A stretch of DNA of 51,515 nt from a virus (IMGVR_UViG_2681813321_000027), one strand, 5' to 3'; shown: positions 1 through 24,377, counted from the first letter of the stretch. Made by a program: numbers and translations. Notes: generated by a model not told the origin, from the sequence alone.

Positions 1-1005
1 TTAATCCCCCGTGGACACTGCGTGGACACTCACGCCACCTTTCAGCGGATTAAGGGCCACCGCATCCTGCAGGTAATCCGGTGCAAAATGTGCATATGCC
101 ATTGTTTGCTGAATGGTTGCGTGGCCAAGAATCTTCTGAAGCGCAATAATGTTTCCTCCGTTCATCACAAAATGGCTGGCGAACGTATGCCGCAGCACAT
201 GTGCAGCCTGGCCTTTTGGTAAATCGGGCTTAACTCTTTTCAGCGCCAAGCAGAATTCCCGGTACTTCACCTCAAACAAGCCGCCTGTTTCTCTGGTTTT
301 GATCGCCTCACAAACTGCCTGCGAAATTGGCACTGTTCTCTTTCGGCCATTTTTGGTTTCAAGAAACGTTACACGGTTATGAACTATCTGTTCACCACGA
401 AGCTTACAAGCTTCACTCCAGCGCGCCCCTGTGCTTAAACACAAAAGCGCAACACGCCAGTAGTCGCCATCCAGTGTATCGAGCAATAGCGCTACTTCCT
501 TCTGGGACAGGAAAGCCATTTCTCGCGGGGATACATAAAGAATGGAGATCCCCCTTACCGGATGTTCTGCATCCCAAAGGCCTATTCTTTTCAGAACAGT
601 AAACATGCCGGATAGTCGGTTCATGTACCTGTTAGCAGATGACGGTTTCAATCCAGCAGCTATCTTTTGAGAACGCCACGCGATAATTTTCAACTTATCA
701 AGATCCACAGCCTGCATATCAGCGCCAAGTTCATTGATTATGTTGCACAGTTGTTTTCGGTCTTCTTCCGCCTTACGCCTGTGTTGACCGTGATACATCC
801 ACCACAACTCAAGCAAATCATTTAGCGTTCGGCGATCACGGTAGCCCTGTATATATTCCCGCTTTTCAGCGTTCGCCATGATGTAGCGTTCAGTGGCCAC
901 CGCTACCGATTTTTTGTCAAATACCTTACGCACGCGCTTTCCCTTGCGTCCGTTCGGCCTGATGTCCAGCAAATAACGACCATCTTCGAGCTTCTTAATT
1001 GACAT
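1..1005 (-). CDS. int: tyrosine integrase (P2 Int family)
   Basis: 334 aa; collinear with P2 Int as recalled (IKKLxDGRY N-terminus, LRHTFA and GHxxIQQTMxYAHFAP catalytic C-terminus); ATG at 1005, TAA at 1-3; first gene in prophage order. Confidence 0.9.
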   Translation of the reverse strand: MSIKKLEDGRYLLDIRPNGRKGKRVRKVFDKKSVAVATERYIMANAEKREYIQGYRDRRTLNDLLELWWMYHGQHRRKAEEDRKQLCNIINELGADMQAVDLDKLKIIAWRSQKIAAGLKPSSANRYMNRLSGMFTVLKRIGLWDAEHPVRGISILYVSPREMAFLSQKEVALLLDTLDGDYWRVALLCLSTGARWSEACKLRGEQIVHNRVTFLETKNGRKRTVPISQAVCEAIKTRETGGLFEVKYREFCLALKRVKPDLPKGQAAHVLRHTFASHFVMNGGNIIALQKILGHATIQQTMAYAHFAPDYLQDAVALNPLKGGVSVHAVSTGD

Positions 1006-1101
1006 TGCGAAGCCCTCCAATGAACCGCCCTACAATTTCTCCAGCCTCTTTCCAGCAATAATCAGACCAGACAAAGAGCAGGTCTAACCAGTTTTCTGGA
1101 C

Positions 1102-1422
1102 TTAGCGGGGTGATTTTTGGTTTGTTTCGGTTGAAACCTGATCGCCCTCCGAATCGAAGAAGCCATCAAGAGAGAGAGGCGGAGCAATCTGCCCCGTCGC
1201 AGCATTAGTTTGATTAAACATCACCCAATCCGAATACTTCCGAAAACGAGGATGATTCAAAATCAGGAGTAACGTTTCTCCAGGTATCATTCTTCCCAAT
1301 ATTTCATAATTTTTGAGATTGTATTGAGATACCCCTGTCACCTCTTCCATCTCTCTACGTGACAATCCCTCTGCCTCTCGAATCAGGCGAAGTTTTTCTC
1401 CAAGGCTTGATTTATGGATCAT
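1102..1422 (-). CDS. C: immunity repressor (P2 C-like)
   Basis: 106 aa from ATG at 1422 (track ORF begins at an upstream GTG); HTH region and FxKYxxWxMxNQxxxxxGQIAP motif resemble P2 C; divergent from cox. Confidence 0.75.
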   Translation of the reverse strand: MIHKSSLGEKLRLIREAEGLSRREMEEVTGVSQYNLKNYEILGRMIPGETLLLILNHPRFRKYSDWVMFNQTNAATGQIAPPLSLDGFFDSEGDQVSTETNQKSPR

Positions 1423-1537
1423 ATGTGATCTAAACTCCACGCTATTGGGTTACATGTAATACAAAACATTCAAATAGCCAAAATAAGCCTATATAAGTCA
1501 TTTTGGGCCATTTGGACGAATTAAGGAGATTACCACA
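1423..1537. promoter_or_regulatory. C/cox divergent promoter-operator (lysis-lysogeny switch) region
   Basis: AT-rich 115-bp gap between divergent repressor and cox; TATA-like hexamers; strong RBS aaggag before cox. Confidence 0.4.
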
Positions 1538-1825
1538 ATGAGCGAATCAGAGCTTGAGGGGTTCATTCAGGTAGCACCATATCCACTTGAAGCGGTGCCA
1601 TATCAACTATTTGCCAAGATGATTGGTCGCAAAGAATCAACCGTCAGAACCATGATTGACGCTGCAAAGTTACCAACGATTGACTTTGTGAAACCAGGTT
1701 CAGTGAAGACGCGAGCATCAGAAAACTGGGTATATCTGCCAGCATTTAACGCAGGTATGCGCAAAGCGTTTTTTGATCAGCCGAAAGAACGCCGCGATGC
1801 ATGGTTGTTGTGGCTGGGGCTTTAA
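1538..1825 (+). CDS. cox: Cox-like excisionase/early regulator
   Basis: 95 aa; YxxFAKxIGxxxxxVRxMID and WVYLPAxN and WLxWLGL motifs match P2 Cox as recalled. Confidence 0.8.
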   Translation: MSESELEGFIQVAPYPLEAVPYQLFAKMIGRKESTVRTMIDAAKLPTIDFVKPGSVKTRASENWVYLPAFNAGMRKAFFDQPKERRDAWLLWLGL

Positions 1826-1831
1826 TCATAA

Positions 1832-2038
1832 ATGACCAGCAATATCACCAGCGCCATTTTGGACCTTGTATTCCTAGAAGTGGGTGTAATAGCGATTTAT
1901 CTGCTTAGCAAGCTAACAGGACAAAAAGAACGCTTTATTGTTCTCAACGTTCATTACCTCGCCGCTTATGCCAGAGGTCTTTTTCCGATCACCATTGGTG
2001 CGGTGCTCATGGCGTTTGTTATTTGGCTCATCGGGTAG
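1832..2038 (+). CDS. small hydrophobic protein (hypothetical)
   Basis: 68-aa ORF with two predicted hydrophobic helices, immediately after cox; no recognisable homology. Confidence 0.35.
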   Translation: MTSNITSAILDLVFLEVGVIAIYLLSKLTGQKERFIVLNVHYLAAYARGLFPITIGAVLMAFVIWLIG

Positions 2039-2049: not shown

Positions 2050-2508
2050 ATGAATAAGCAACAGCGAAATGGCAAGCCCCATAACACGGGATTTCGTCGC
2101 AATTACTTTGAAAATGGGCGTTATGCCGGGGAAGTAAATAGGTACGGAGTTTTTGACATGAAGCAACAGTGCAATTCTTCACAGCAACGCTTCCGCAACG
2201 GGGAGGAACGCCATGCTAACCGTTTCGCTACCAGTACATCGCGTAGCAACTATCGCTACAGCCTGAGCGAAACACACGCCACACCTGATGGCCATCCCGT
2301 AAAACAAATTGGTGAACACACCTGGCTGATTGAGAAAGCTGGAATCGTGGTTCACAGATGTCCGCACAACCCATTTACCGGAAACCGCATTTTTGCTCTG
2401 AGCAACGGCGACAATCAGTTTGGGCAGGATTTCACATTGTACGAAGCGCTACGCACGGTTGATCGTCTGCTGCGCGGACAGAATTTCATTAAACAGGCTG
2501 ATTTATAA
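2050..2508 (+). CDS. early-region protein (hypothetical; position of P2 B / 186 CII)
   Basis: 152 aa from ATG 2050 with gagg RBS (track ORF starts at TTG 2023); assignment is by synteny only. Confidence 0.45.
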   Translation: MNKQQRNGKPHNTGFRRNYFENGRYAGEVNRYGVFDMKQQCNSSQQRFRNGEERHANRFATSTSRSNYRYSLSETHATPDGHPVKQIGEHTWLIEKAGIVVHRCPHNPFTGNRIFALSNGDNQFGQDFTLYEALRTVDRLLRGQNFIKQADL

Positions 2509-2518: not shown

Positions 2519-2797
2519 ATGACCAAAGAGCATGCACAAGGTGTATTTATCCGTTTTATTGATTTTCGCGGTGAACTGTTATTACGCGCATCAGCTATTG
2601 ATGGAGTCGTCCCATCAGAAAAAAATGCAGCTACTTACGTTTATCTGAACGGCACGCGCCTGACCGTAGAACTTCCGTACCAGACTGTACACGAAATCAT
2701 TAGCGAAGCTGAAAAAGCACGTAATATTAATGGCGATAAACCCTATATCGAAATTATCTGCATGGATTCAGAAGCTGAAATTCAGAAAGCAGATTAA
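2519..2797 (+). CDS. hypothetical early protein
   Basis: 92 aa from ATG 2519; acidic C-terminus; same operon orientation. Confidence 0.5.
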   Translation: MTKEHAQGVFIRFIDFRGELLLRASAIDGVVPSEKNAATYVYLNGTRLTVELPYQTVHEIISEAEKARNINGDKPYIEIICMDSEAEIQKAD

Positions 2798-2808: not shown

Positions 2809-3051
2809 ATGGGCAAAGAATATAAAACTCTCATTAACAAAGCACTTGAGCGTTTTTATTTTCGCTTAAGTGCATCAGGCGCGCATGCTGAACGTGCAGC
2901 CCGTGACTCATTGACCAGGGCAATCCGGAGTCTGTATGACGTGGCTTTTTACGCTGATGATCTGGATGCACTTAACGAACTTTCCGAGCTGATCTGTGCC
3001 GCAGAATGCGGGGAACATATTGAACCGTATAAGCTGGGGAATATCGCATGA
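2809..3051 (+). CDS. hypothetical early protein
   Basis: 80 aa; RBS present; stop overlaps next start. Confidence 0.5.
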   Translation: MGKEYKTLINKALERFYFRLSASGAHAERAARDSLTRAIRSLYDVAFYADDLDALNELSELICAAECGEHIEPYKLGNIA

Positions 3052-3161
3052 GTATATTTATCTCATGGCTTGTTCTGATTATTTCGGTGGCCTGCGCCAT
3101 TGGGATTATGCGAATTATTAATTCAGTGAAAAATATTGAACGCTTTTTCACTGGCGAATAA
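3048..3161 (+). CDS. small hydrophobic peptide (hypothetical)
   Basis: 37 codons (MSIFISWLVLIISVACAIGIM...), ATGA overlap with upstream stop; not in the ORF track because of size. Confidence 0.3.
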   Translation: MSIFISWLVLIISVACAIGIMRIINSVKNIERFFTGE

Positions 3162-3247
3162 CAGCGCAAATAAAACCACAGGTTAAATAAGAAAATGTAA
3201 AAACAATCCGCATTCGCGGAGGTATTCACACACGCCAAGGAGGCGTA

Positions 3248-3451
3248 ATGGCAATTAAGCATTTTCCTGTCGTTCGTTTTACCTCCAGAGGACGTGAATA
3301 CGAAGTCGACGAACGCCTGATTACCACAATCGACAAACACCGTTCGGAAAAGGATGCACACCACATCTACCTCACTGACGGCACTTACTTCTGCGCCACC
3401 AACGTGGCGCGGGTGAATCTTATCCGACAAGTACAGGAGCCACGCAGATGA
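3248..3451 (+). CDS. hypothetical early protein
   Basis: 67 aa; strong RBS aaggagg; ATGA overlap with next gene. Confidence 0.5.
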   Translation: MAIKHFPVVRFTSRGREYEVDERLITTIDKHRSEKDAHHIYLTDGTYFCATNVARVNLIRQVQEPRR

Positions 3452-3714
3452 CCATTCTGGACTACATCGCTACCCATCCGGGTTGTAGCGGCGGAGAAAT
3501 CGCCGCAGCACTGAATACCCCAACCACAGCCATCAATGCTGAGTTACGCCGACTCTGGCGCGGCGGCTTAGTCATCAGAACAAACCGCAGCACAGGTGGT
3601 CGCGCTCGCAAAGCAGGAGGCCAAGCTTCTTACCACGTAAACCCGATGCCGTTCGGGTGTAGCAATCCACTTACTCACATGTTTAACCAGCTACTGAAGG
3701 AAACCAGAGCATGA
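3448..3714 (+). CDS. hypothetical protein, possible winged-helix DNA binding
   Basis: 88 aa; N-terminal ILDYIATHPGCSGGEIAAAL pattern resembles wHTH regulators; translationally coupled. Confidence 0.45.
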   Translation: MTILDYIATHPGCSGGEIAAALNTPTTAINAELRRLWRGGLVIRTNRSTGGRARKAGGQASYHVNPMPFGCSNPLTHMFNQLLKETRA

Positions 3715-4010
3715 GCACCATCAATCACCAGAAGCTACGCGAACTGGCATTTGCCCTGCAACGAATGGCAACGCCTCAAAAATTACTGGTATTTCGCGCA
3801 ATGCTCTCGCCGTCTGCTGTGCTGGCACTGCTGGATGAGCTGGAGCACGCCAGAACCACGGCTCCTGCCATTCGTCTGACGCTCCATCATGAAATCGCTG
3901 ATTTCTGCGCGACGTTGAAGGCGCCAGGCGAACCGGAAACACCGGAAGTAATACAGCAAGAACTGCTGCAACGCATTGACAAGGTTTTTGATTTTTTTCT
4001 GAACCAGTAA
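3711..4010 (+). CDS. hypothetical early protein
   Basis: 99 aa; ATGA coupling to upstream gene. Confidence 0.5.
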   Translation: MSTINHQKLRELAFALQRMATPQKLLVFRAMLSPSAVLALLDELEHARTTAPAIRLTLHHEIADFCATLKAPGEPETPEVIQQELLQRIDKVFDFFLNQ

Positions 4011-4042
4011 GAAACCAGAACATGCACACACAAAAAAACCGC

Positions 4043-4153
4043 TTGCCATGCCGCAATCAGTCAGGTTACATTTCCGCTGCACCTCACAAAACGGGTGTCG
4101 GGTTTCGCAGCCTGCTGACTACACAAGCGCACAACCGCGCCAGCGGTTTTTTT
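4043..4153 (+). ncRNA. candidate small RNA (promoter to intrinsic terminator)
   Basis: TTGCCA-N17-TACATT at 4043-4071, then stem aaccgc/gcggtt (4133-4148) followed by T5-7; no ORF with RBS inside. Confidence 0.25.
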
Positions 4154-4332
4154 GTGCGTACTGTATTGCCACGTTTTTTTCGCGTCAGAATTATGGCGGG
4201 GCGTACGGGGCCGACTTCGGTCGGGCCGGGTTCTTGTGTAGCCGGTACTGCGAACCTCGTACGTCTCGCCACCCACAGTTTCGCAGCTCTGGATGGTGAG
4301 TTTTCACAACTTACTACACAAGGGGCCACACC

Positions 4333-4563
4333 ATGGCAAACCGCAAACCACACCGCGCTATCGCGGAGAGTCGTCACATCCAGACTGAAATCAACCGCAG
4401 ACTTTCCCGCGCATCACGCGTCGCGCAAATCATGCACATCAATATGCTGCATGAGCGCAGCCACGCACTATCAAACATTTATTCCGCCTCTGTTTTCAGC
4501 TATCTGGCGGATGATCTGCACGAGCTTCAACAGCTCATCCAGCAGCAAAACAAACTCCATTAA
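4333..4563 (+). CDS. hypothetical protein
   Basis: 76 aa; aagggg RBS 9 nt upstream. Confidence 0.4.
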   Translation: MANRKPHRAIAESRHIQTEINRRLSRASRVAQIMHINMLHERSHALSNIYSASVFSYLADDLHELQQLIQQQNKLH

Positions 4564-4635
4564 TTCCTGTTCCGGGCCTTTCCTGCACCTTGCGGCGGGA
4601 GGCCTTCGCACATCTGTAACAAGAGGATTGCCGCA

Positions 4636-5001
4636 ATGATTCTCGCCAACGACTTTCTTGAATACCTGCTCAACACAGAACGTGATCTTGCCGCTCGCGT
4701 GCGTGATCGTTATGACATGTACCTGAAATCCCTGCCTGTACCGCAGCTCGCTGACGGAAAGATTGTTATTGATGGTCGCTACATGATTGACAGCCACGAG
4801 GGAAATTACAGGCTTTACCGCATTGAAGGTGGCACCCCGTCCGTTATTGGCATTTACCAGCGCCCATCCTCTGCAATCGTCGATGTGATTGCCGACAGCA
4901 TCCGCATCACACATCGCCATGCCGACACAGAAGACACCGTGCTGGAAATTCAGCGGCTGGCTACAGTCTGCCGCGACACCCTGAATGGCATGACGAAGTA
5001 A
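4636..5001 (+). CDS. hypothetical protein
   Basis: 121 aa; immediately upstream of A. Confidence 0.5.
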   Translation: MILANDFLEYLLNTERDLAARVRDRYDMYLKSLPVPQLADGKIVIDGRYMIDSHEGNYRLYRIEGGTPSVIGIYQRPSSAIVDVIADSIRITHRHADTEDTVLEIQRLATVCRDTLNGMTK

Positions 5002-5007: not shown

Positions 5008-7830
5008 ATGACGGCAGAGTACATCAGGGACTGGCAACAACCGCGCCACGCAGTGGGGCGTGAAGGAACGGGGATCCCCGCTCCTGAATCCGCGCTTTCC
5101 TCCTGGCTGGATGCCTACCGGGCAGAGAACGAGCGCCGCCAGGAAATGGCTGATGCGGCGTTCTCCGCCACGCCGCTGGGCAACCTGATTAATAAAAGCC
5201 TGGACGCACAGGAAAAACAGGACAAAACCATCACACTGGCAGGAGACGCCAGAAAACAGGCACGTGGCGCGGTGGATGAAGCCATGGCCTCGCTGCGCCT
5301 GCTGCCGTCCTATCTGCGCGATCCGCTTATTCGCCACCTCTCCTTCCTGCGCAAAAAACAGGAAGCCGATCGCCGGAAAGGCAAAAAGAGCTGGCAGGCT
5401 GAACGCTACGCGTGCGGAACCCTGCGCAAAATATTCGAACGTCTGGACCGCACCGACCACCGCTGGCTGACACCGGGTTATCGCTCCCTTGCCGGACGCG
5501 AACGCCTGGATGATTTGCTTTACCTGCCGCAGCTCAACAAACACCAGATACAGACGCTGGCCACCATGACGGCGGCGATGTTCAGCAGCACCTTCGAAAA
5601 ACTCTGCGATGGCTTTGGCGCGACTGATGGCGAGCTGACCATGGATGTAACGCTGAAGGCTTATCAGATGCTGGCCCGCATGGCGTTACACCTGCACGCC
5701 ATGCCTCCACATTATGACGCACTGACAACAGACAAAGACCGGAGGAACGAACCGGACACGGAGCTGCTGCCGGGCGCAATCCTTCGCTTGACCTGTGCGG
5801 AATGGTGGAAACGCAAACTATGGCTGTTGCGTTGTGAGTGGCGGGAAGAACAACTCCGCGCCGCCTGTCTGGTTTCCAGAAAAACATCCCCCTATCTGAG
5901 CCAGGACGCGTTAAGCGAGTTTCGCGCACAGCGCGAGAAAACACGCGATTTCCTGAAAAGTTTCATGCTGGAAAATGAAGACGGGTTCACGATTGATCTC
6001 GAGACGGTGTATTACGCGGGAGTAAGTAACCCGGTTCACCGTAAGGCAGAAATGATGGCCACCATGAAGGGACTGGAACTTCTGGCCGAAGCCCGTGGCG
6101 ACAGAGCGGTGTTTCTGACCGTCACCTGCCCGTCAAAATACCACGCAACAACGGAGAACGGTCATCCGAACCCCAAATGGAACGGGGCCACCATGCGCGA
6201 CTCCAGCGATTACCTGGTTAACACGTTTTTTGCGGCGGTCCGCAAAAAACTGAACCGCGACGGCCTGCGCTGGTATGGCATCCGCACGGTGGAGCCTCAC
6301 CATGACGGCACTGTGCACTGGCATATGATGGTCTTTGCACATCCGGACGAGATTGAAACCATCGTGTCCCACGTCTGCGATATTGCCATTCAGGAGGGCC
6401 GCCACGAGCTGGGCGATGACATAACTCCGCGTTTTAAGGCGGAGTATGTCGACGGCTCAAAAGGCACACCAACCAGCTACATCGCCACCTACATCGGAAA
6501 GAACCTGGACAGCCGCGCCGTGGATGGCATCGACCCGAAAACGGGCAAGCCACGCGTTGACCACGAAACCGGAAAATCAATGGCCGAGAGCGTGGAGCGC
6601 GCCATCGGCTGGGCGCGCCTTCACCGGGTCCGTCAGTTCCAGTTCTTTGGCATCCCCTCCCGTCAGGTGTGGCGTGAACTGCGCCGCCTTGCCAGCCAGA
6701 TGGCACGCAATCCGGAAGGCCCGCAACGGCTGAAAGATGATGCAATGGATGCGGTACTCGCTGCCGCCGATGCCGGGTGTTTTGCCACCTACATTGAAAA
6801 ACAGGGTGGCGTGCTTGTTCCACGCAAGGACTACCTGATTCGCACCGCCTACGACCTCGCAGATGAGCTGAACGATTACGGCGAACAGAGCGTACAGATT
6901 TACGGGATCTGGTCACCACTCATCGGGGAATCCTCCCGTGTGTGCACGCATCCGGATAACTGGAAGCTGGTAAGACGTAAACCAGAACCGGAAGACAACG
7001 CCCACGAAAATGGTTTTGACCTTCAGGGCGGCCCTGCCGCCCCTTGGACTCGTGGCAATAACTGTCCCCGTGTACAGGAAACGGACGACAACGGGACAGA
7101 ACAGCCGGAAGAACGGCCAGCACCGTGGCCGCAGCTCCCTGACGGCGTTGAAGTGAACGAATGGATGCGCTCACTGAAACGGCACGAACGCCGGGCGCTG
7201 ATGCGTTCGCTTCGTGACAAACAGGCAAAAAACAGCAGTGATGAAATGCAGAGCTGGACACAGAGCCGCAAACAGCAGCGGCCTTTGCCTGATAACCACG
7301 AATTACTCGCTAAAGAATGGCGGGAGTCTGCTGAATCTCTCGGCCTGCATATCGGTGAACAGCAGATGCAGCACCTGTTACGGGGCGGCAGCCTGTACGT
7401 TGACGGCAGCATCATTGCACCGCAGGGATTTGAAATTGTACGCAAACCGGATACCCGACCGGACAGCCGGATCACGCAGCTCTGGCAGCGCCTGAGCCGT
7501 AACCACGGCGTAAGCAGTACGGAGATCCGCCATAACCCGGTCGCCAGCTATCTGGAACAGCTGGGGGCATCAGACCCCGAAGCCGCCGCACGCCTGGCAT
7601 CCACACTTCAGCAGGACCAGAACACCATGAAAACACCCGTTACCGTGCTTTCTGACATGCTGCGCGCCATCCGCGACGCAGAGCACGCACAGAGAATCAG
7701 TGAAACCACTGAACGCGCCCGCCGCAAAGCAGACCTGCTGCGGGGTAGCCTGACCAGTGGAAACAAAAAACAGACAGAAAAGGGATTCACAAATCCCGTA
7801 AATGAGCAAAAAACGCGCCGCGATATATGA
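5008..7830 (+). CDS. A: rolling-circle replication initiator (P2 gpA family)
   Basis: 940 aa; HUH motif VHWHMMVF (about 6316-6336) and two-tyrosine motif YIATYIGK (about 6475-6501); long charged C-terminal region. Confidence 0.85.
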   Translation: MTAEYIRDWQQPRHAVGREGTGIPAPESALSSWLDAYRAENERRQEMADAAFSATPLGNLINKSLDAQEKQDKTITLAGDARKQARGAVDEAMASLRLLPSYLRDPLIRHLSFLRKKQEADRRKGKKSWQAERYACGTLRKIFERLDRTDHRWLTPGYRSLAGRERLDDLLYLPQLNKHQIQTLATMTAAMFSSTFEKLCDGFGATDGELTMDVTLKAYQMLARMALHLHAMPPHYDALTTDKDRRNEPDTELLPGAILRLTCAEWWKRKLWLLRCEWREEQLRAACLVSRKTSPYLSQDALSEFRAQREKTRDFLKSFMLENEDGFTIDLETVYYAGVSNPVHRKAEMMATMKGLELLAEARGDRAVFLTVTCPSKYHATTENGHPNPKWNGATMRDSSDYLVNTFFAAVRKKLNRDGLRWYGIRTVEPHHDGTVHWHMMVFAHPDEIETIVSHVCDIAIQEGRHELGDDITPRFKAEYVDGSKGTPTSYIATYIGKNLDSRAVDGIDPKTGKPRVDHETGKSMAESVERAIGWARLHRVRQFQFFGIPSRQVWRELRRLASQMARNPEGPQRLKDDAMDAVLAAADAGCFATYIEKQGGVLVPRKDYLIRTAYDLADELNDYGEQSVQIYGIWSPLIGESSRVCTHPDNWKLVRRKPEPEDNAHENGFDLQGGPAAPWTRGNNCPRVQETDDNGTEQPEERPAPWPQLPDGVEVNEWMRSLKRHERRALMRSLRDKQAKNSSDEMQSWTQSRKQQRPLPDNHELLAKEWRESAESLGLHIGEQQMQHLLRGGSLYVDGSIIAPQGFEIVRKPDTRPDSRITQLWQRLSRNHGVSSTEIRHNPVASYLEQLGASDPEAAARLASTLQQDQNTMKTPVTVLSDMLRAIRDAEHAQRISETTERARRKADLLRGSLTSGNKKQTEKGFTNPVNEQKTRRDI

Positions 7831-7875
7831 AGCGCGCATAAAACAGGCAAAAACGGGATTTCAGAATCCCGTAAA
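7782..7875. promoter_or_regulatory. paired palindromic repeats upstream of parM (parC-like centromere/operator candidate)
   Basis: gggattcacaaatcccgtaaa (7782-7802, inside the last codons of A) and gggatttcagaatcccgtaaa (7855-7875); each an inverted repeat gggatt-N4-aatccc; copies in repeat units 2 and 3, absent from unit 4. Confidence 0.4.
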
Positions 7876-7906
7876 CGATTAATTAATCAACATAAGGAAA
7901 AGCGAC

Positions 7907-8866
7907 ATGAAAATTTGTATCGATGACGGCTCCACCAACATCAAGCTGGCATGGACTGAGAAGGGCGAACGCCGCAACGCCATCAGCCCAAACAGCTTCA
8001 AGTCGGAATGGTCTGCGCCGTTCGGTGGCACGCAGCCCGCGAACTACATGCTTGATGGCGTGCGCTATGGTTTTGATCCGGTCAGCGATCGCTTTGTCCA
8101 GACGACCGACACGCAATACCAGTACAGCGATGTGAATGTCATTGCCATTCATCACGCGCTGGTCAAATCAGGCATCACACCACAGGAAGTGGATGTGGTT
8201 GTCACCCTGCCACTGAGCGAATATTTCGACACAAACGCACAGCCGGACATGGCCAACATCAATCGCAAAAAAGCAAACGTCATGCGCCCGGTGGCGTACC
8301 AGAACGGAAAAGCATTCACTATCCGTAACGTACGGGTTATGCCTGAATCCATTCCGGCTGGTTTTAAAGCACTGGCTGACATGAGTCCGTTTGAATCCCT
8401 GCTGATTGTGGATTTAGGCGGAACCACGCTGGATGTGGCAAAGGTTCAGGGACAACTGGCAGGTATCAGCCAGGTGTTTTGCGATCCACACGTAGGCGTT
8501 TCCCTGATGGCCGATGCCGTACTGTCGGTGATGGCCACTAACGGTATGCGTACCAGTCACCACATCGCCAATACCATTATCGAACATCGCCATGATGAAG
8601 CCTGGCTGCGCCAGCACATCCACAATGACGCGCATTACGCCAGCCTGATGGCGGTTATTCGTGAAAAGGAAGAAACACTGAAACAACGCGTGTTCCGCGC
8701 GCTGGCGGGTTTTTCGGGTTACGGGCGGGTGATGGTTGTCGGTGGCGGGGCGGAGATTGTGGCACCCGCTATCCGCGAAGCCTGCGGAGTTAATGCGACT
8801 TTCATCGCGGACGGGGTGCCACAGTTTGCTCTGGTTAATGGGCTGTACGCAATGGACAAGGAGTAA
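7907..8866 (+). CDS. parM: ParM/StbA-like actin-fold ATPase
   Basis: 319 aa; MKICIDDGSTNIKLAW, DLGGTTLDV and VVGGGAEI motifs; collinear with plasmid R1 ParM as recalled. Confidence 0.85.
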   Translation: MKICIDDGSTNIKLAWTEKGERRNAISPNSFKSEWSAPFGGTQPANYMLDGVRYGFDPVSDRFVQTTDTQYQYSDVNVIAIHHALVKSGITPQEVDVVVTLPLSEYFDTNAQPDMANINRKKANVMRPVAYQNGKAFTIRNVRVMPESIPAGFKALADMSPFESLLIVDLGGTTLDVAKVQGQLAGISQVFCDPHVGVSLMADAVLSVMATNGMRTSHHIANTIIEHRHDEAWLRQHIHNDAHYASLMAVIREKEETLKQRVFRALAGFSGYGRVMVVGGGAEIVAPAIREACGVNATFIADGVPQFALVNGLYAMDKE

Positions 8867-8870
8867 ACCA

Positions 8871-9182
8871 ATGACGACACCAACCAGACGGATAAGTTTC
8901 TATCTGAAGCCCGCCGCCGTCAAGAACGAAGGCGAAGCATGCGCCTGGCTGGACAGCCTTACACCAGAAGCCCGCAAAAGTGGTCAACGCGTGGCTTTTC
9001 TGGCCGGGCTGGCACTACTGAAAATGAATCCGGCAGAGGCTTACCGACTGGCTGCATGGGCTGATGATGAGGCGTTATCAGTGACACAAACCAGGACAGA
9101 ACGCCCCGCGTCACAGCCAGTACCAACCGCACAGATAACCAGTCAGATGGCCGGAAATATCCGGGCGTTATTTCCCGAATAA
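8871..9182 (+). CDS. parR: ParR-like adaptor (putative)
   Basis: 103 aa from ATG 8871 with aaggag RBS; AFLAGLALL and IRALFPE resemble R1 ParR; directly downstream of parM. Confidence 0.55.
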   Translation: MTTPTRRISFYLKPAAVKNEGEACAWLDSLTPEARKSGQRVAFLAGLALLKMNPAEAYRLAAWADDEALSVTQTRTERPASQPVPTAQITSQMAGNIRALFPE

Positions 9183-9188
9183 CACAAC

Positions 9189-9210
9189 ATCAGGGCGCAT
9201 CCGCCCTGAT
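9189..9210 (+). other. perfect hairpin between parR and zbd gene
   Basis: atcagggcg-catc-cgccctgat, 9-bp stem, 7 nt after parR stop; no strong T-run. Confidence 0.3.
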
Positions 9211-9245
9211 GACTTTAACCCGGGAGCATAAACAAGGGGGACACA

Positions 9246-9578
9246 ATGCAATACATTGACAGAGAAAAAGCGCAGCGACTGATTGAGCGGATGGAAGCGC
9301 TGGCGAAAGAAGAAAATGTCAACATCCAAAAAATAGCTGAATGTGGCCAGATAGTTCTTCGTCGTGAAAAAGACCTCAAACAACTGATGTCTGGCGAAAC
9401 CAGCAAAACATGGACTTCAGGCGAGAAGACGGTTTATTGCAGTTTCTGCAATAAATCCCAGTACGAAGTCACAAAGGTGATTGCCGGACCGTCTGTTTAC
9501 ATCTGCAATGAGTGTGTGGATTTGTGCAATGAAATTATCAGGAAAGAAGTGACAGACAAAAAGGAAAAAAACGCATGA
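9246..9578 (+). CDS. standalone ClpX zinc-binding-domain (C4 zinc finger) homolog
   Basis: 110 aa; C-terminal [38 protein letters not shown] closely matches the ClpX N-terminal ZBD (CxxC...CxxC); no AAA+ module. Confidence 0.75.
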
Positions 9579-9982
9579 ACAGAAAACAGAAACAAGAGTT
9601 GAAATACTTCTTACGTAAAGAAATTGCCAGGCTTGAAGATGCAGAGTCACAATCATCAGAAATTCCGTTCGGAATGGATATCAACGACGCCCGTATGCTT
9701 CAGGCATACCGTATAGCTCAGGCTGCACTACAGACAAAACCGTTAAATAACATACATGAAAAGTATGATTATTTTACGGATACCGCTTGCTTGCTGACAT
9801 CTGAAGAACAAAAGATAGCCCAACTTTTAGGCGACGCATGGAACCTGTATTTAACATTGCCAGTTGAGCATCCAATGGGTAGAGATGAATTTTGCCGGGC
9901 AATTCATCATTGCCAAAATATGGTGTTGGCACGCCCGGCCATCAGGGCGCTGGCCAGGAAGGGGCAAGGCTATAAAAGATAA
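9575..9982 (+). CDS. hypothetical protein co-translated with zbd
   Basis: 135 aa; ATGA overlap with zbd stop; no recognised domain. Confidence 0.55.
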
Positions 9983-9984
9983 GT

Positions 9985-10014
9985 AAAACGCCCTCCTCCA
10001 GGGCGTTTATTTCA
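9985..10014 (+). terminator. intrinsic terminator of the accessory operon
   Basis: aaacgccct-cctcc-agggcgttt followed by atttc; copies at about 16976, 25492, 33377. Confidence 0.6.
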
Positions 10015-10467
10015 ATGCACAATAGTGCACAAATTTGCACAATTTTTTTGAACGACTGTTTACCCTTCCAGCCCGTATAGCGGCTGGATCCGTCAAGGAT
10101 CCGTGCGTGCACAAAAAAACGCGCTTTTTCTGCGCGCAGGTGACGGGGGAACAGCCCGCGTTTCAGGGGGTAAATAGCATTCCCTGAACGATGTCGCAGA
10201 GACACAACAGAATGGCTGTATTTCTCACTCTGAGCGTGAAAAATACGTGAGGGATTCTGATTTGATGGGGTGAAAGGTAAGGCCGTCAAAATCGCACTGA
10301 GGCGGCGAAGAACATGCAGTCAACGCGGTGGGATTGCGTAAGAGTCTGACCGCCGATGATGGCAATAAGCAGAAAAGCGTCGTGAAATTATCTGATTGAT
10401 ACAGGAGCTGGAGAGCCGGGGCATAAATTTTTTATGCCCCGGCGAAGCAGCAGACAAGCGAAGCGCG
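10015..10467. other. cos / packaging region (candidate)
   Basis: 453-bp non-coding region in the P2 cos position next to the Q stop; three tgcacaa direct repeats (10015-10045), 13-bp-stem hairpin 10415-10443, G-rich tract gaggcggcgaagaacatgc at about 10298-10316. Confidence 0.4.
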
Positions 10468-11514
10468 TCAGGATGTGGGCTGGGTATCTAACAGTGCGTA
10501 AGGGTTAAAGCGGATCACCTCTTCGCCAAGCCAGTCATTGATGTGCTTCATGGCCTCCATGACGGGCATCAGCTCGTTAATTGCGTAAACCCGCGCGGCC
10601 TTCTCCACATCACCAAACGCACTTTTTTCACCCGGCATCGCCCCCATAAGTTGCGGCGGAACGCGGTGCGCAGCCAGCACATCATCACGGGATGCCGCCT
10701 TAACATTCATGAACTCATCCTTTGCGGTGATCTGCTGGAACGGCAAAATTTGCACCCCCTCTTTGCCCCCGTTGGGCGCATGAATGAGCACGTTTTTAAA
10801 CGCACCGCCACCACGTGCACCCTGTAGCGTTTCTTTCAGGGAGTCCATGCTTTCGCGGTTTACCTGCGCTGCACCGATGTAGATGATGCACCCGGCGTGG
10901 GATCCGTTGTCGTAATACAGTTTTCTGAACATGTCCGCCGAATGAGACAGGCTGGCCGAGAGTAATGCGCCGAGATATTCCGGCATGCCGTAGATTTCCT
11001 GGTTAATGTCAGGATTCATCAGGTGGCACACTTTGCCAGGGCGAAACTGGAACGCATCCTTGCCATCCTGCACATACCACCATGATTCAAGATCGCTACC
11101 GCGTCGCATGTATTTCGCCAGGGCGTGCCGTAATTTAAGCGGTTCGCCGAGCATATTGCTTCGAAGCTCAAGGAATGCGTTACCGAACACAAACCAGTCC
11201 AGCGCCAGCGCCGAGAAATCCTGCCGGGAAAGCAGCGGGTGCGGGATGTAGCAACCGAGTAATACATTGCGCTTAAAGTAAAGCGCAGACTGATGCCAGG
11301 ACGTTTGCCGGGCAGCTCTTGCCAGACCGTACCAGTCCACCGGGGTTTCATACCACCGCCCGTTATCAGCACAGTACATATTGTCCAGCAGGTCATGCCC
11401 GGTCAGGCGATAAGGACCATCAAATGTGAATGCACTGAGCGACGATTCTTTCCTGAGCGCATCAGCGAGATCAATGCGTGAACTCATGCGCACTTTTTTA
11501 TTTTTTCTGCTCAT
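10468..11514 (-). CDS. Q: portal protein (P2 gpQ family)
   Basis: 348 aa; size and position match P2 Q; ATGA overlap with P. Confidence 0.85.
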   Translation of the reverse strand: MSRKNKKVRMSSRIDLADALRKESSLSAFTFDGPYRLTGHDLLDNMYCADNGRWYETPVDWYGLARAARQTSWHQSALYFKRNVLLGCYIPHPLLSRQDFSALALDWFVFGNAFLELRSNMLGEPLKLRHALAKYMRRGSDLESWWYVQDGKDAFQFRPGKVCHLMNPDINQEIYGMPEYLGALLSASLSHSADMFRKLYYDNGSHAGCIIYIGAAQVNRESMDSLKETLQGARGGGAFKNVLIHAPNGGKEGVQILPFQQITAKDEFMNVKAASRDDVLAAHRVPPQLMGAMPGEKSAFGDVEKAARVYAINELMPVMEAMKHINDWLGEEVIRFNPYALLDTQPTS

Positions 11515-13229
11515 CAGAACTCCATAACCGTGAAACGCTCGTTTTCTCCTTCGCCGCCAATCGGTTCGTTAATGACAGCAAGCATGGTTGCCCACGCAAG
11601 GTCGCCGTGGCTGATCCCCCTCGCGCGGTCCGTTTCGTAAGTGATAAAGCCGCCCGGTGTTTTCACCTTACGCACGGCGTTAAAGGCCGCGACCAGCTCG
11701 CGTTCGGCGCGATCGTATTCCCACCGCCCGGCACGCATTATTTGCAGCATTTTCAGTACCAGCGACCGTTTTGATGACAGCGTGAAGGTGTACGGAATAG
11801 CAGCAGGGAAAAACCGTTTCACTATCTGATAAACAGCCTCCCCGTTCCCGCCCGTCACATCAATGCCGATGTGTTCCACGTTGTAGCGATACGTGAACTC
11901 TTCAATGACTCTGGCCTGTTCTTCAAACTCCAGCCCCTGAACGCGTCTCGTCTCCACCGTTCGAAAACGGCCACCAGGAACAGCCGGAGGAACCACCACG
12001 GACACAGCGCCGCTGTCGCCGTTGCCACTGCTGCCGTTTGCGTCATACCCAATCCATACCGGACGATTCCCCATCGGGCGGGGAGCAAAAGGTTTCCAGT
12101 CTTTCCAGTCGTCGTATCCGTCAACACCGCAGCCAATCAGGATATTCAGGTTAAATGCCGATTCCCCTTCGCGGACAAACTCACACATATAGAGATTGAG
12201 GAACTCGTCTTCGGTGTTTTCATCACGAATTTCGTCGATATCGGTGTGTTTCCAGCCGTGATTAACCACATCTTCCAGCGTGACAATTTGCCGCCACGTC
12301 CGGTCAGGGCAGATAAGCCCGTTATGCAGCGTTTTCCAGTCCACAGAAAAACGCTGGCGTTTATGCGAGGCCTTTTTCTCGTTCCAGCGGTCGCCGTTCC
12401 AGTAGGCGTATGCCTCGTGCGTTTCGGTGGATGGCGTGGAGAAGTAGGTGCGTCGCAGCCCGCTGAGGGTTGCCATAGCGCCAGCCACCTTGCGCAGTTC
12501 AGCAAAGCGACTGACCCAGAAAAATTCATCAAAATAAAAATTGCCCGTATAGGACTGTGCCGTCGCAGCAGAAGTACCGAGAAAATGCAGTTCTGCGCCG
12601 TTGGAGAGGATGATTTTATCGCCCCCTTTCAGCTCCACATCAACTTCAGCCGCGGCCTTCTGAATAATGCTTTTAAACTGGAACGCCTGACGACGCGACG
12701 CAGACAAAAAAATCTGGTTACGCTGGTAAGGTTGTGCCACATCGTCACGCAGCGCCATCAGCAGTGCTTCCTGTGCAAAATACCAGGTCGCCCCAATCTG
12801 TCGGGATTTCAGGATCATCCTGTTACGTATCCCGGCTTCACTGCAAAGGGTCAGGGAGTCAAACCAGCCCCGCTGATGCCACTCCAGCCTGCTGATGATT
12901 TTTTCCCGCAGTGCGGCAATCTGTTCCGGCGTGAAATGATTTTTGAGTTTTTTCGCCCGGCCTTTCTTTCCTGCGGCCGTCACATCCGGCTGGCCATCAT
13001 GCAGCTTTTTAAGCTGCCGGGTCAGCAGGTCTATTTCCTTAAAGTCACCACCTGTTTTATTCTGTTTTTCAGTAAGCTGGATGAGACGCGCATCGATGGA
13101 CTGCGTGACACGCTGCACGGGTGGCGTTTCATCCCACTGGTCGCGTTTTTTCCACGCATAAATCGTGTTCGGGTTTATTCCCATCAGACGTGATATTTCT
13201 GCGGGCGGATAACCCTGCCAGTAAAGTTG
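11514..13229 (-). pseudogene. P: terminase ATPase subunit gpP, 5'-truncated at junction J1
   Basis: matches full P copies from about residue 13 onward; upstream part of the 605-aa track ORF is antisense A sequence. Confidence 0.7.
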
Positions 13230-13231
13230 AC
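13229..13231. other. junction J1: P 5' region / orphan A / internal A (= 6240)
   Basis: ...gtaaagttg + a + ccgcaaaaaactg...; compared with intact copies at 20220 and 6240. Confidence 0.85.
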
Positions 13232-14821
13232 CGCAAAAAACTGAACCGCGACGGCCTGCGCTGGTATGGCATCCGCACGGTGGAGCCTCACCATGACGGC
13301 ACTGTGCACTGGCATATGATGGTCTTTGCACATCCGGACGAGATTGAAACCATCGTGTCCCACGTCTGCGATATTGCCATTCAGGAGGGCCGCCACGAGC
13401 TGGGCGATGACATAACTCCGCGTTTTAAGGCGGAGTATGTCGACGGCTCAAAAGGCACACCAACCAGCTACATCGCCACCTACATCGGAAAGAACCTGGA
13501 CAGCCGCGCCGTGGATGGCATCGACCCGAAAACGGGCAAGCCACGCGTTGACCACGAAACCGGAAAATCAATGGCCGAGAGCGTGGAGCGCGCCATCGGC
13601 TGGGCGCGCCTTCACCGGGTCCGTCAGTTCCAGTTCTTTGGCATCCCCTCCCGTCAGGTGTGGCGTGAACTGCGCCGCCTTGCCAGCCAGATGGCACGCA
13701 ATCCGGAAGGCCCGCAACGGCTGAAAGATGATGCAATGGATGCGGTACTCGCTGCCGCCGATGCCGGGTGTTTTGCCACCTACATTGAAAAACAGGGTGG
13801 CGTGCTTGTTCCACGCAAGGACTACCTGATTCGCACCGCCTACGACCTCGCAGATGAGCTGAACGATTACGGCGAACAGAGCGTACAGATTTACGGGATC
13901 TGGTCACCACTCATCGGGGAATCCTCCCGTGTGTGCACGCATCCGGATAACTGGAAGCTGGTAAGACGTAAACCAGAACCGGAAGACAACGCCCACGAAA
14001 ATGGTTTTGACCTTCAGGGCGGCCCTGCCGCCCCTTGGACTCGTGGCAATAACTGTCCCCGTGTACAGGAAACGGACGACAACGGGACAGAACAGCCGGA
14101 AGAACGGCCAGCACCGTGGCCGCAGCTCCCTGACGGCGTTGAAGTGAACGAATGGATGCGCTCACTGAAACGGCACGAACGCCGGGCGCTGATGCGTTCG
14201 CTTCGTGACAAACAGGCAAAAAACAGCAGTGATGAAATGCAGAGCTGGACACAGAGCCGCAAACAGCAGCGGCCTTTGCCTGATAACCACGAATTACTCG
14301 CTAAAGAATGGCGGGAGTCTGCTGAATCTCTCGGCCTGCATATCGGTGAACAGCAGATGCAGCACCTGTTACGGGGCGGCAGCCTGTACGTTGACGGCAG
14401 CATCATTGCACCGCAGGGATTTGAAATTGTACGCAAACCGGATACCCGACCGGACAGCCGGATCACGCAGCTCTGGCAGCGCCTGAGCCGTAACCACGGC
14501 GTAAGCAGTACGGAGATCCGCCATAACCCGGTCGCCAGCTATCTGGAACAGCTGGGGGCATCAGACCCCGAAGCCGCCGCACGCCTGGCATCCACACTTC
14601 AGCAGGACCAGAACACCATGAAAACACCCGTTACCGTGCTTTCTGACATGCTGCGCGCCATCCGCGACGCAGAGCACGCACAGAGAATCAGTGAAACCAC
14701 TGAACGCGCCCGCCGCAAAGCAGACCTGCTGCGGGGTAGCCTGACCAGTGGAAACAAAAAACAGACAGAAAAGGGATTCACAAATCCCGTAAATGAGCAA
14801 AAAACGCGCCGCGATATATGA
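13231..14821 (+). pseudogene. A: 3' fragment of A (about residues 412-940), no start
   Basis: identical to 6240-7830. Confidence 0.8.
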
Positions 14822-14897
14822 AGCGCGCATAAAACAGGCAAAAACGGGATTTCAGAATCCCGTAAACGATTAATTAATCAACATAAGGAAAAGCGAC

Positions 14898-15857
14898 ATG
14901 AAAATTTGTATCGATGACGGCTCCACCAACATCAAGCTGGCATGGACTGAGAAGGGCGAACGCCGCAACGCCATCAGCCCAAACAGCTTCAAGTCGGAAT
15001 GGTCTGCGCCGTTCGGTGGCACGCAGCCCGCGAACTACATGCTTGATGGCGTGCGCTATGGTTTTGATCCGGTCAGCGATCGCTTTGTCCAGACGACCGA
15101 CACGCAATACCAGTACAGCGATGTGAATGTCATTGCCATTCATCACGCGCTGGTCAAATCAGGCATCACACCACAGGAAGTGGATGTGGTTGTCACCCTG
15201 CCACTGAGCGAATATTTCGACACAAACGCACAGCCGGACATGGCCAACATCAATCGCAAAAAAGCAAACGTCATGCGCCCGGTGGCGTACCAGAACGGAA
15301 AAGCATTCACTATCCGTAACGTACGGGTTATGCCTGAATCCATTCCGGCTGGTTTTAAAGCACTGGCTGACATGAGTCCGTTTGAATCCCTGCTGATTGT
15401 GGATTTAGGCGGAACCACGCTGGATGTGGCAAAGGTTCAGGGACAACTGGCAGGTATCAGCCAGGTGTTTTGCGATCCACACGTAGGCGTTTCCCTGATG
15501 GCCGATGCCGTACTGTCGGTGATGGCCACTAACGGTATGCGTACCAGTCACCACATCGCCAATACCATTATCGAACATCGCCATGATGAAGCCTGGCTGC
15601 GCCAGCACATCCACAATGACGCGCATTACGCCAGCCTGATGGCGGTTATTCGTGAAAAGGAAGAAACACTGAAACAACGCGTGTTCCGCGCGCTGGCGGG
15701 TTTTTCGGGTTACGGGCGGGTGATGGTTGTCGGTGGCGGGGCGGAGATTGTGGCACCCGCTATCCGCGAAGCCTGCGGAGTTAATGCGACTTTCATCGCG
15801 GACGGGGTGCCACAGTTTGCTCTGGTTAATGGGCTGTACGCAATGGACAAGGAGTAA
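14898..15857 (+). CDS. parM: ParM-like ATPase, copy 2
   Basis: identical protein, offset +6991. Confidence 0.8.
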   Translation: MKICIDDGSTNIKLAWTEKGERRNAISPNSFKSEWSAPFGGTQPANYMLDGVRYGFDPVSDRFVQTTDTQYQYSDVNVIAIHHALVKSGITPQEVDVVVTLPLSEYFDTNAQPDMANINRKKANVMRPVAYQNGKAFTIRNVRVMPESIPAGFKALADMSPFESLLIVDLGGTTLDVAKVQGQLAGISQVFCDPHVGVSLMADAVLSVMATNGMRTSHHIANTIIEHRHDEAWLRQHIHNDAHYASLMAVIREKEETLKQRVFRALAGFSGYGRVMVVGGGAEIVAPAIREACGVNATFIADGVPQFALVNGLYAMDKE

Positions 15858-15861
15858 ACCA

Positions 15862-16173
15862 ATGACGACACCAACCAGACGGATAAGTTTCTATCTGAAG
15901 CCCGCCGCCGTCAAGAACGAAGGCGAAGCATGCGCCTGGCTGGACAGCCTTACACCAGAAGCCCGCAAAAGTGGTCAACGCGTGGCTTTTCTGGCCGGGC
16001 TGGCACTACTGAAAATGAATCCGGCAGAGGCTTACCGACTGGCTGCATGGGCTGATGATGAGGCGTTATCAGTGACACAAACCAGGACAGAACGCCCCGC
16101 GTCACAGCCAGTACCAACCGCACAGATAACCAGTCAGATGGCCGGAAATATCCGGGCGTTATTTCCCGAATAA
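15862..16173 (+). CDS. parR: ParR-like, copy 2
   Basis: offset +6991. Confidence 0.5.
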   Translation: MTTPTRRISFYLKPAAVKNEGEACAWLDSLTPEARKSGQRVAFLAGLALLKMNPAEAYRLAAWADDEALSVTQTRTERPASQPVPTAQITSQMAGNIRALFPE

Positions 16174-16236
16174 CACAACATCAGGGCGCATCCGCCCTGA
16201 TGACTTTAACCCGGGAGCATAAACAAGGGGGACACA

Positions 16237-16569
16237 ATGCAATACATTGACAGAGAAAAAGCGCAGCGACTGATTGAGCGGATGGAAGCGCTGGCGAAAG
16301 AAGAAAATGTCAACATCCAAAAAATAGCTGAATGTGGCCAGATAGTTCTTCGTCGTGAAAAAGACCTCAAACAACTGATGTCTGGCGAAACCAGCAAAAC
16401 ATGGACTTCAGGCGAGAAGACGGTTTATTGCAGTTTCTGCAATAAATCCCAGTACGAAGTCACAAAGGTGATTGCCGGACCGTCTGTTTACATCTGCAAT
16501 GAGTGTGTGGATTTGTGCAATGAAATTATCAGGAAAGAAGTGACAGACAAAAAGGAAAAAAACGCATGA
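16237..16569 (+). CDS. ClpX ZBD homolog, copy 2
   Basis: offset +6991. Confidence 0.7.
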
Positions 16570-16973
16570 ACAGAAAACAGAAACAAGAGTTGAAATACTT
16601 CTTACGTAAAGAAATTGCCAGGCTTGAAGATGCAGAGTCACAATCATCAGAAATTCCGTTCGGAATGGATATCAACGACGCCCGTATGCTTCAGGCATAC
16701 CGTATAGCTCAGGCTGCACTACAGACAAAACCGTTAAATAACATACATGAAAAGTATGATTATTTTACGGATACCGCTTGCTTGCTGACATCTGAAGAAC
16801 AAAAGATAGCCCAACTTTTAGGCGACGCATGGAACCTGTATTTAACATTGCCAGTTGAGCATCCAATGGGTAGAGATGAATTTTGCCGGGCAATTCATCA
16901 TTGCCAAAATATGGTGTTGGCACGCCCGGCCATCAGGGCGCTGGCCAGGAAGGGGCAAGGCTATAAAAGATAA
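16566..16973 (+). CDS. hypothetical 135-aa protein, copy 2
   Basis: offset +6991. Confidence 0.5.
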
Positions 16974-20256: not shown

Positions 20257-20410
20257 TGCTCCCCCTGAGTAATTACAGGAAGATTACCCGCGCGCGAAAC
20301 CGTTCTCCTTAACCCCCTGTTCTGGCCGTTTTCTTACAACAAAAGCCCTTTGTATCAGCCTGTTACGCTTTGCCATCATGACTGAAGAACCAGTCAGAGG
20401 GGCAAAAACT
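20257..20410. promoter_or_regulatory. divergent late promoter region (P leftward, O rightward)
   Basis: 154-bp gap between divergent P and O; TGT...ACA dyad candidates; copies at 28773-28926 and 36658-36811. Confidence 0.4.
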
Positions 20411-21247: not shown

Positions 21248-21270
21248 TAAGACAAAGGAGCAAATTTTTT

Positions 21271-22323: not shown

Positions 22324-22368
22324 TCAACTCACGGCGGGCATCATGCCCGCCTGTAACGGAGAGAAAAA

Positions 22369-24373: not shown

Positions 24374-24377
24374 ACCA

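Follow-up and report, generated by a model that had tools for sequence, protein, structure and literature searches.

A conserved chain of small overlapping genes between cox and the replication gene A of a P88-like, P2-family prophage

Introduction

The viral sequence IMGVR_UViG_2681813321_000027 (51,515 nucleotides; "the window" below denotes this whole stretch of DNA) contains five consecutive small open reading frames (ORFs), termed here ORF1 to ORF5, which lie between the genes cox and A and which an earlier reading of the sequence (the original prediction) had described as a chain of translationally coupled small early genes. All five frames are present on the + strand with the predicted boundaries and match annotated coding sequences (CDSs), and their placement between cox (Phage_Cox) and A, on the same strand as both, was borne out. 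DNA searches identify the window as a P88-like phage (genus Xuanwuvirus, Peduoviridae) of the P2 family, with 89-95% identity to sequenced phages and 99.8% identity to the prophage adjoining pdxB in Escherichia coli WS3294A (NZ_CP035819.1); the 5' end of the window falls inside P2-family prophage, and of 5426 complete E. coli genomes 1440 carry related DNA. The five ORFs are genuine small genes that probably lie midway along the early (lytic) operon of this P88-like temperate prophage.

Organization and coding potential of the chain

Start and stop codons overlap in the tetranucleotide ATGA at 3048-3051, 3448-3451, and 3711-3714 in the raw sequence, as had been predicted, and an 86-nt gap (3162-3247) separates ORF2 from ORF3 (Table 1). 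Canonical Shine-Dalgarno (SD) elements of at least five nucleotides, located 4-9 nt upstream, precede four of the five starts, and ORF2 has only GGGGA; the strong ribosome-binding sites (RBSs) originally claimed for the whole chain are thus found at every gene but ORF2. The five ORFs have exactly the same boundaries and overlaps as the RefSeq CDSs in NZ_CP035819.1 and as gp06-gp10 of phage P88, and four of them match curated families in Pfam and PHROG (DUF4754 for ORF1, phrog_3459 for ORF3, phrog_1687/MarR_2 for ORF4, and phrog_4144 for ORF5). As genes they are ordinary, being already annotated and belonging to existing Pfam and PHROG families without known function.

Substitution patterns were measured in the 15 related loci collected. 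The ratio of nonsynonymous to synonymous differences (pN/pS, 7-16 related loci) is 0.087 for ORF1, 0.225 for ORF2, 0.204 for ORF3, 0.110 for ORF4 (based on just two same-length sequences), and 0.274 for ORF5, and variable alignment columns concentrate at third codon positions in all five frames. All five ORFs are under purifying selection, and the conservation of coding in relatives on which the original prediction had been made to depend was therefore found. The 4-nt overlaps are preserved in all annotated relatives, even where ORF3 has only 49% identity, and the block of ORF1 to ORF3 occurs in 1363 of the 5426 complete E. coli genomes, that of ORF4 and ORF5 in 1067.

The chain consists of two putatively coupled sets, ORF1-ORF2 and ORF3-ORF4-ORF5, between which lie a conserved hairpin and an insertion site for cargo. 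The five ORFs are an arbitrary slice of a longer operon running from cox to A rather than a self-contained unit.

Table 1. Positions of the chain, its intergenic hairpin, and the surrounding features in the window (aa, amino acids; nt, nucleotides).
Feature	Position	Strand	Details
ORF1	2809-3051	+	80 aa; SD AAGGA 2797-2801, 7 nt spacer
ORF2	3048-3161	+	37 aa; SD GGGGA 3036-3040, 7 nt spacer; weakest of the five
ORF3	3248-3451	+	67 aa; SD AAGGAGG 3237-3243, 4 nt spacer
ORF4	3448-3714	+	88 aa; SD AGGAG 3435-3439, 8 nt spacer
ORF5	3711-4010	+	99 aa; SD AAGGA 3697-3701, 9 nt spacer
Hairpin TCCGC-ATTC-GCGGA	3207-3220	.	in the 86-nt ORF2/ORF3 gap
RNA module ending the chain	4026-4332	+	isrK, C4-like antisense RNA, and two target-box copies
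isrK	4079-4153	+	Rfam RF01394, 61.9 bits (cut-off 50); terminator 4133-4148
Target-box copy inside isrK	4104-4110, 4120-4127		second copy
C4 antisense RNA	4189-4276	+	Rfam RF01695, 83.2 bits (cut-off 45)
Target boxes upstream of the derepression gene	4280-4286, 4315-4322		just before SD/ATG
Integrase	1-1020	-	ORF listing/annotation
C-type repressor	1102-1440	-	divergent from cox
Putative early promoter Pe	1469-1497	+	-35 TTCAAA 1469-1474, 17-nt spacer, -10 TATAAG 1492-1497
cox	1538-1825	+	Pfam Phage_Cox PF10743, 1.2e-22
68-aa gene	1832-2038	+	
DUF4761 gene	2158-2508	+	from 2050 with the alternative upstream ATG
92-aa gene	2519-2797	+	phrog_3800
Derepression protein gene	4333-4563	+	PF25738, 9.7e-8
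121-aa gene	4636-5001	+	
Replication endonuclease A	5008-7830	+	940 aa, GPA-type; RefSeq annotation
ParM gene	7907-8866		directly after the replication endonuclease
Direct repeats	6240-13235=13231-20227; 14045-22559=22561-31075; 23384-31267=31269-39152; 42431-46658=46657-50883		

ORF1 and the membrane peptide ORF2

ORF1 is a full-length DUF4754 protein (PF15946, 181.7 bits against a cut-off of 27, residues 1-80 on model positions 1-80) that is predicted to be helical, with modelled helices at residues 4-48 and 52-66. A relationship to the P2 helicase loader gpB, raised by a blastp match (E 0.003 in a 15-sequence database), was rejected, hhalign giving a probability of 2%.

ORF2 is the 37-aa hydrophobic peptide that had been noticed in the chain, with a mean Kyte-Doolittle hydropathy of 2.5 over residues 2-21. 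From its sequence it is predicted to be a single-pass peptide of the inner membrane, hydrophobic in its N-terminal segment and charged in its C-terminal tail, the latter probably cytoplasmic. No family was found for it in Pfam, PHROGs, NCBIfam, or PADLOC. The distant locus L020 retains the ORF1-ORF2 pair, and there ORF2 is the best-conserved protein of the chain (70% amino acid identity, vs. 41-42% for ORF1 and ORF3); the ORF2 copies differ with a pS of 0.685, at which synonymous sites are saturated, and a pN of 0.174, so that the constraint acts on the peptide. It is hardly credible that some of the ORFs, the 37-aa one in particular, are not genes but frames kept open by chance or by the constraint of overlapping elements: ORF2 is indeed very short, has no family match and a weak SD, and is shortened to 30 aa by a frameshift in phage Chuche, but all five frames have pN/pS values of 0.09-0.27 with an excess of third-position variation, and ORF2 is intact in 14 of the 15 loci and keeps 70% amino acid identity in L020 at the synonymous divergence just given.

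Gaps between genes of this early operon also hold unannotated small hydrophobic ORFs in two distant relatives, one of 31 aa in L020 (~1506-1600, MKNVKAILTIATVWVIFQVSALIWLALKIWE) and one of 34 aa in L021 (~2294-2398, MSKNEYTVLMLTSVIGVISITAKIAFIVFYLFGN). Neither is homologous to ORF2. Small membrane peptides thus appear to be a recurring feature of this position among distant relatives.

A more ambitious reading of ORF2, which we regard as doubtful, is that it is an uncharacterised and widespread phage effector of host takeover, always translationally coupled to the DUF4754 protein. Such an effector could, for instance, be an inhibitor of cell division or of some membrane-bound host protein in the early phase of lytic growth. 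If true, ORF2 would define a novel family of small membrane proteins from phages, carried by about one in four E. coli genomes.

Two other roles can be proposed for ORF2. All or some of the genes, ORF2 for instance, could be lysogenic-conversion ("moron") genes rather than early lytic ones, which are expressed from a promoter of their own in the lysogen and serve, for example, in superinfection exclusion. Small membrane proteins commonly act as exclusion factors, the zone accepts cargo in relatives (an SPFH gene with a small membrane protein, a ParE-like gene, a Dam methylase), and ORF1 itself contains a promoter-like site (2834-2862). This is nevertheless improbable, given that promoter-like sites occur at or below chance (4 found vs. 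5.4 expected from shuffles), that no flanking terminators were flagged, and that all the genes are on the operon strand, tightly packed within the operon with overlaps, the start of ORF2 lying within the stop codon of ORF1. Alternatively, ORF2 could be a type I toxin controlled by an unannotated antisense RNA from the minus strand, as a 37-aa hydrophobic peptide coupled to an upstream frame recalls mok/hok, and the minus strand offers a promoter-like site (3132-3105), a terminator-like hairpin (3220-3207), and a fold at 3170-3300 with a z-score of -3.77. The small hydrophobic peptide of such systems is present, but no cognate antisense or divergent small RNA with a promoter and terminator placed for pairing with the toxin mRNA was found, and this stretch has no Rfam match. 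Transcription of the minus strand from ~3098 would head away from the 3207-3220 hairpin, so that promoter and terminator form no unit. Promoter matches are at chance level, none was flagged on the minus strand from 3220 to 3500, and ORF1 is a conserved 80-aa protein rather than a leader frame. The type I toxin was rejected on the geometry of promoter and terminator, and we consider it highly improbable; ORF2 as a member of the early lytic operon is the reading followed below.

ORF3, ORF4, and ORF5

ORF3 (phrog_3459) is modelled as a five-strand SH3-like beta-barrel and belongs to a very narrow family, with 17 matches among 1.84 billion representatives. Its proposed paralogy with the 92-aa gene, based on a SEK(D/N)A...YL.(D/N)GT pattern seen by eye, was unsupported (blastp E 0.28, hhalign 0.45%). 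One family, phrog_19053, matches both ORF3 and ORF4 and so hinted at a natural fusion of the two; the 121 relatives from the database included chimeras of the frameshift type alone (P0018, for example) and no clean fusion.

ORF4 is the winged-helix member that had been expected among the five, with matches above the cut-offs to MarR_2 (PF12802, 31.5 bits, 2.1e-7, cut-off 27) and HTH_24 (PF13412, 22.6 bits, 8.1e-5), a match to PF01047 below the cut-off (17.9 bits vs. 24.6), and membership of phrog_1687. Canonical MarR proteins have ~140-150 aa, with N- and C-terminal helices that form the dimer interface. ORF4 has 88 aa (relatives 79-88 aa), and the MarR_2 match is limited to its winged-helix core (residues 2-53, model positions 9-61 of 61); it shares the winged helix-turn-helix (wHTH) core with the MarR family but lacks the flanking dimerisation helices. 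The protein is a stand-alone winged helix, for which the label "MarR family regulator" is over-specific. The stand-alone wHTH proteins FeoC/YhgG are closer in size, although matches to them are weak (E 0.35-0.9). The length of 88 aa is due to seven residues inserted in the predicted wing, most relatives having 81 aa. This insertion (residues ~50-60, TGGRARKAGGQASY vs. TGGRFSY) is common to the O157:H7 TR01 prophage.

ORF5 belongs to phrog_4144 (5e-61). Its match to Ead/Ea22 (PF13935) reaches 21.2 bits, below the cut-off of 27, and aligns residues 28-50 only, so that ORF5 as a whole does not qualify as a member of that family; its N-terminal segment is Ead/Ea22-like.

Gene content variation and the intergenic hairpin

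The region between cox and A had been called a variable zone, to be examined by comparing gene content across relatives. This comparison did locate variable points, but the variability surrounds a conserved core instead of covering all five genes: nearly every relative examined has the DUF4761 gene, the 92-aa gene, the DUF4754 gene (ORF1), the 37-aa gene (ORF2), and ORF3, with ORF1 to ORF3 forming the conserved core, and variability is concentrated in the ORF2/ORF3 gap and downstream of ORF3/ORF5. The gap contains nothing, one gene of 136-138 aa, two genes, or about six genes, the last of these inserts including an exonuclease, a ParE-like gene, and a Dam methylase. In some relatives, ORF4 and the N-terminal half of ORF5 are deleted and the C-terminal half of ORF5 stays ATGA-coupled to ORF3; in others ORF5 is missing. 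Cargo found after ORF3/ORF5 includes, for example, an SPFH gene with a membrane protein gene or a DNA-binding protein gene. Distant relatives have ORF3-like genes without a winged-helix neighbour, which argues against an obligate ORF3-ORF4 unit.

The gap also holds a 5-bp hairpin, immediately 3' of which the cargo genes insert. Across 13 aligned sequences, 100% of the cells are paired, two of the pairs show compensatory changes, and the score was reached by 1 of 500 shuffles. The hairpin is terminator-like on the minus strand only. It persists in four loci without ORF4 (L005, L006, L008, and L011), by which a role as an ORF4 operator was ruled out.

The same persistence bears on the possibility that ORF3 and ORF4 form an anti-defence cassette of the acr-aca type, in which a small inhibitor is followed by a helix-turn-helix (HTH) autoregulator and the inverted repeat in the gap acts as operator. 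The arrangement is suggestive, as the small, lineage-restricted ORF3 is followed by an ATGA-coupled winged-helix gene and preceded, in the 86-nt gap and at the cargo insertion site, by a conserved inverted repeat. However, besides being kept without ORF4, the repeat varies in the compensatory manner that an RNA would show, the scan detected no promoter in the gap, and ORF3 relatives occur without a winged-helix neighbour as do ORF4 relatives without ORF3 in Shiga toxin (Stx) phages. PADLOC gave no match either, which is weak evidence since PADLOC covers defence and not anti-defence. The own promoter, HTH-bound operator, and linked inhibitor that define such cassettes were not found together here, and an acr-aca cassette is very unlikely; ORF3 and ORF4 are better read as members of the distal set of the early operon.

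The downstream isrK/C4 RNA module

The chain ends at an RNA module in which both isrK and the C4 antisense RNA score above the Rfam gathering scores and the C4 loops are complementary to their targets, the target boxes TTCGCAG (at 4104 and 4280) and TACACAAG (at 4120 and 4315) matching the C4 boxes at 4248-4254 and 4233-4240, respectively. The C4 boxes and both target copies covary across eight related loci, with at least five and at least four specificities, which suggests that the P88-like prophages of E. coli have several immunity-like specificities. The module is missing from six other relatives. Its layout is that of P1 immI (c4-icd-ant) and P4 seqA-CI-seqC.

A 21-nt inverted repeat (4026-4046 vs. 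4139-4159, 90% complementary) brackets isrK, and its first arm is able to base-pair with the U-tract of the isrK terminator and the 3' half of its stem-loop. When the fold of a read-through transcript entering from ORF5 is predicted, this pairing takes the place of the terminator (z-score -4.65); the terminator does form in the fold predicted for a transcript starting at 4079. Pairing of the 4026-4046 segment could thereby give promoter-dependent read-through of early transcripts toward gene A. Both arms are invariant in the eight loci and therefore supply no covariation.

A 205-aa ORF (4022-4639) extends over isrK and C4. It has a Pfam Phage_ASH score of 25 bits (cut-off 26) and carries the annotation "ash family protein" or "transcriptional regulator" in relatives; this frame probably stems from translation across conserved RNA genes and does not represent a protein.

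Operon neighbourhood

The chain sits where accessory genes of a P2-family early operon are expected, between cox and A, on the same strand, and downstream of the divergent C/cox pair. From the upstream members (1538-2797) into the chain, neighbouring genes are separated by 6-11 nt with one exception, a distance of ~120 nt ahead of the annotated DUF4761 start, which shrinks to 11 nt if the ATG at 2050 is used. No terminator-like site was flagged by the scan on the + strand between 1540 and 4132, the first being at 4133. The position of the putative promoter Pe, between the repressor gene C and cox, agrees with that of P2 Pe.

The 121-aa gene preceding A weakly resembles P2 Orf81/DUF5405 (blastp E 0.003 in the 15-sequence database; Pfam 13.9 bits, cut-off 21.6), and by position it may correspond to the DUF5405 genes located ahead of A in P2 and 186. 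Beyond A, the ParM gene encodes an actin-like plasmid segregation system, whose presence in a prophage of the P2 family points to an episomal phase or a stabilisation function; the reference prophage also encodes a partitioning/stability protein there.

From 6240 to 50883, collinearity of the window with the reference prophage NZ_CP035819 is lost. This part contains four staggered direct repeats of 4.2-8.5 kb that are 99.75-99.9% identical, each of them a jump back of 4-8 kb relative to the reference, and the differences between copies are clustered single nucleotide polymorphisms in which two haplotypes alternate. The repeats look like an assembly-graph artefact of two co-existing variants and not biology, and the five-ORF region sits in the unique, non-repeated part of the window. 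A 226-kb contig labelled Vagococcus sp. (L003, NZ_JBQPOM010000071.1) contains an E. coli-type P88-like early region with ~88-98% identity per gene and is probably contaminated or mislabelled. A contig search with ORF4 returned a single locus, a "Vagococcus" contig resembling E. coli prophage DNA, and one ORF3 match (P0015) is in like manner labelled Enterococcus faecalis.

Proposed expression and role of the chain

In a lysogen, the C repressor would block the early promoter between C and cox and keep the operon silent, and upon infection or induction one polycistronic mRNA would run from cox through the chain toward A. Ribosomes ending ORF1, ORF3, and ORF4 would re-initiate at the ATGA junctions, so that ORF1/ORF2 and ORF3/ORF4/ORF5 would be made as two co-regulated sets, with ORF3 having the only strong stand-alone RBS, 3' of the hairpin that marks the set boundary and the cargo insertion point. 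Synteny and gene overlap are what point to this early expression and translational coupling. The products would be small accessory proteins rather than core replication or morphogenesis proteins, that of ORF4 being predicted to be a stand-alone winged-helix DNA binder. By analogy with the non-essential P2 orf80-83 and 186 fil/dhr/CP79-84 genes and with the lambda exo-xis genes, the five most likely influence host physiology or the choice between lysis and lysogeny at an early stage of infection.

Several observations weigh against this account. Pe was picked by eye and missed by the consensus scan because its last -10 base is G, and the isrK terminator (4133-4148) lies between the chain and gene A, so that a single transcript reaching A requires read-through. 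The SD element of ORF2 is weak, and the coupled sets are not obligate functional units, because ORF3 occurs without ORF4 in distant relatives and ORF4 without ORF3 in Stx phages. As to function, PADLOC and NCBIfam searches gave nothing useful for any of the five proteins (the best PADLOC E-values, 0.008-0.05, came from partial alignments and include no significant match that would assign them to defence), sequence searches of the PDB with ORF1, ORF3, ORF4, and ORF5 returned nothing significant, and fold searches returned generic matches only. In the literature, DUF4754 was mentioned in no paper found, and nothing functional was found on these P88 genes.

The finding itself is of little weight, as it concerns annotated hypothetical genes in a common prophage family with a P2/186-like arrangement. 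Of modest value are ORF2, for which the constraint at the peptide level is strong and no family is assigned, the precise mapping of the insertion points for early-operon cargo (after the hairpin at 3207-3220 and after ORF3/ORF5), and the ending of the chain at an isrK/C4 module controlling an epsilon-like derepression protein. These points may be of use to studies of phage small proteins or of P2-family regulation.

Comparison with known systems

The closest counterparts are P88 gp06-gp10 (NC_026014) and the corresponding genes of E. coli Xuanwuvirus prophages, which have the same genes, order, and 4-nt overlaps at a DNA identity of 89-99.8%. The corresponding RefSeq proteins include WP_000514277.1 and WP_000985157.1 (both identical here) as well as WP_000021661.1, WP_000153703.1, and WP_000104314.1; for ORF1 and ORF3, WS3294A encodes identical proteins. 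P88 differs in that its ORF4 homologue has 81 aa and lacks the 7-aa wing insertion, and in that extra cargo (a membrane protein gene and a lipoprotein/SPFH-type gene) follows the ORF5 homologue, whereas here isrK-C4 follows directly.

Homologues of ORF4 and of the ORF5 N-terminus lie in the early-left region of Stx lambdoid phages. For example, a MarR-like gene of Stx2_EH2246 is 44% identical to ORF4 (E 2e-22), and slightly downstream of the MarR-like gene are two Ead/Ea22-like genes with N-termini 49-57% identical to that of ORF5, the similarity being confined to the first 46-69 residues. The exo-xis (ea) genes of lambda and Stx phages are likewise small, overlapping, earliest-expressed, and accessory. 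Ea22, which is reported to favour lysogeny (PMC7093339, PMC10834534), has a coiled coil and a C-terminal domain, both of which ORF5 lacks, and the phage family and the operon are different.

In P2 (orf78/B/orf80-83) and 186 (cII/fil/dhr/CP79-84), the small genes between cox/apl and A occupy the same operon position and strand in the same compact overlapping layout, although no sequence homology to the chain is detectable, the best blastp match being the one between ORF1 and P2 gpB (E 0.003). According to their annotation, these P2 and 186 genes are mostly non-essential, and in 186 the translation of A depends on orf84. The terminator after gene B in P2 and tR1 in 186 resemble the gap hairpin in being located just upstream of the SD of the next gene and in being followed by a GG.ATTC motif, which is also found here, but they have a T-run that the gap hairpin lacks. 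In both phages, as in the chain described here, an intergenic hairpin separates a proximal from a distal set of operon genes.

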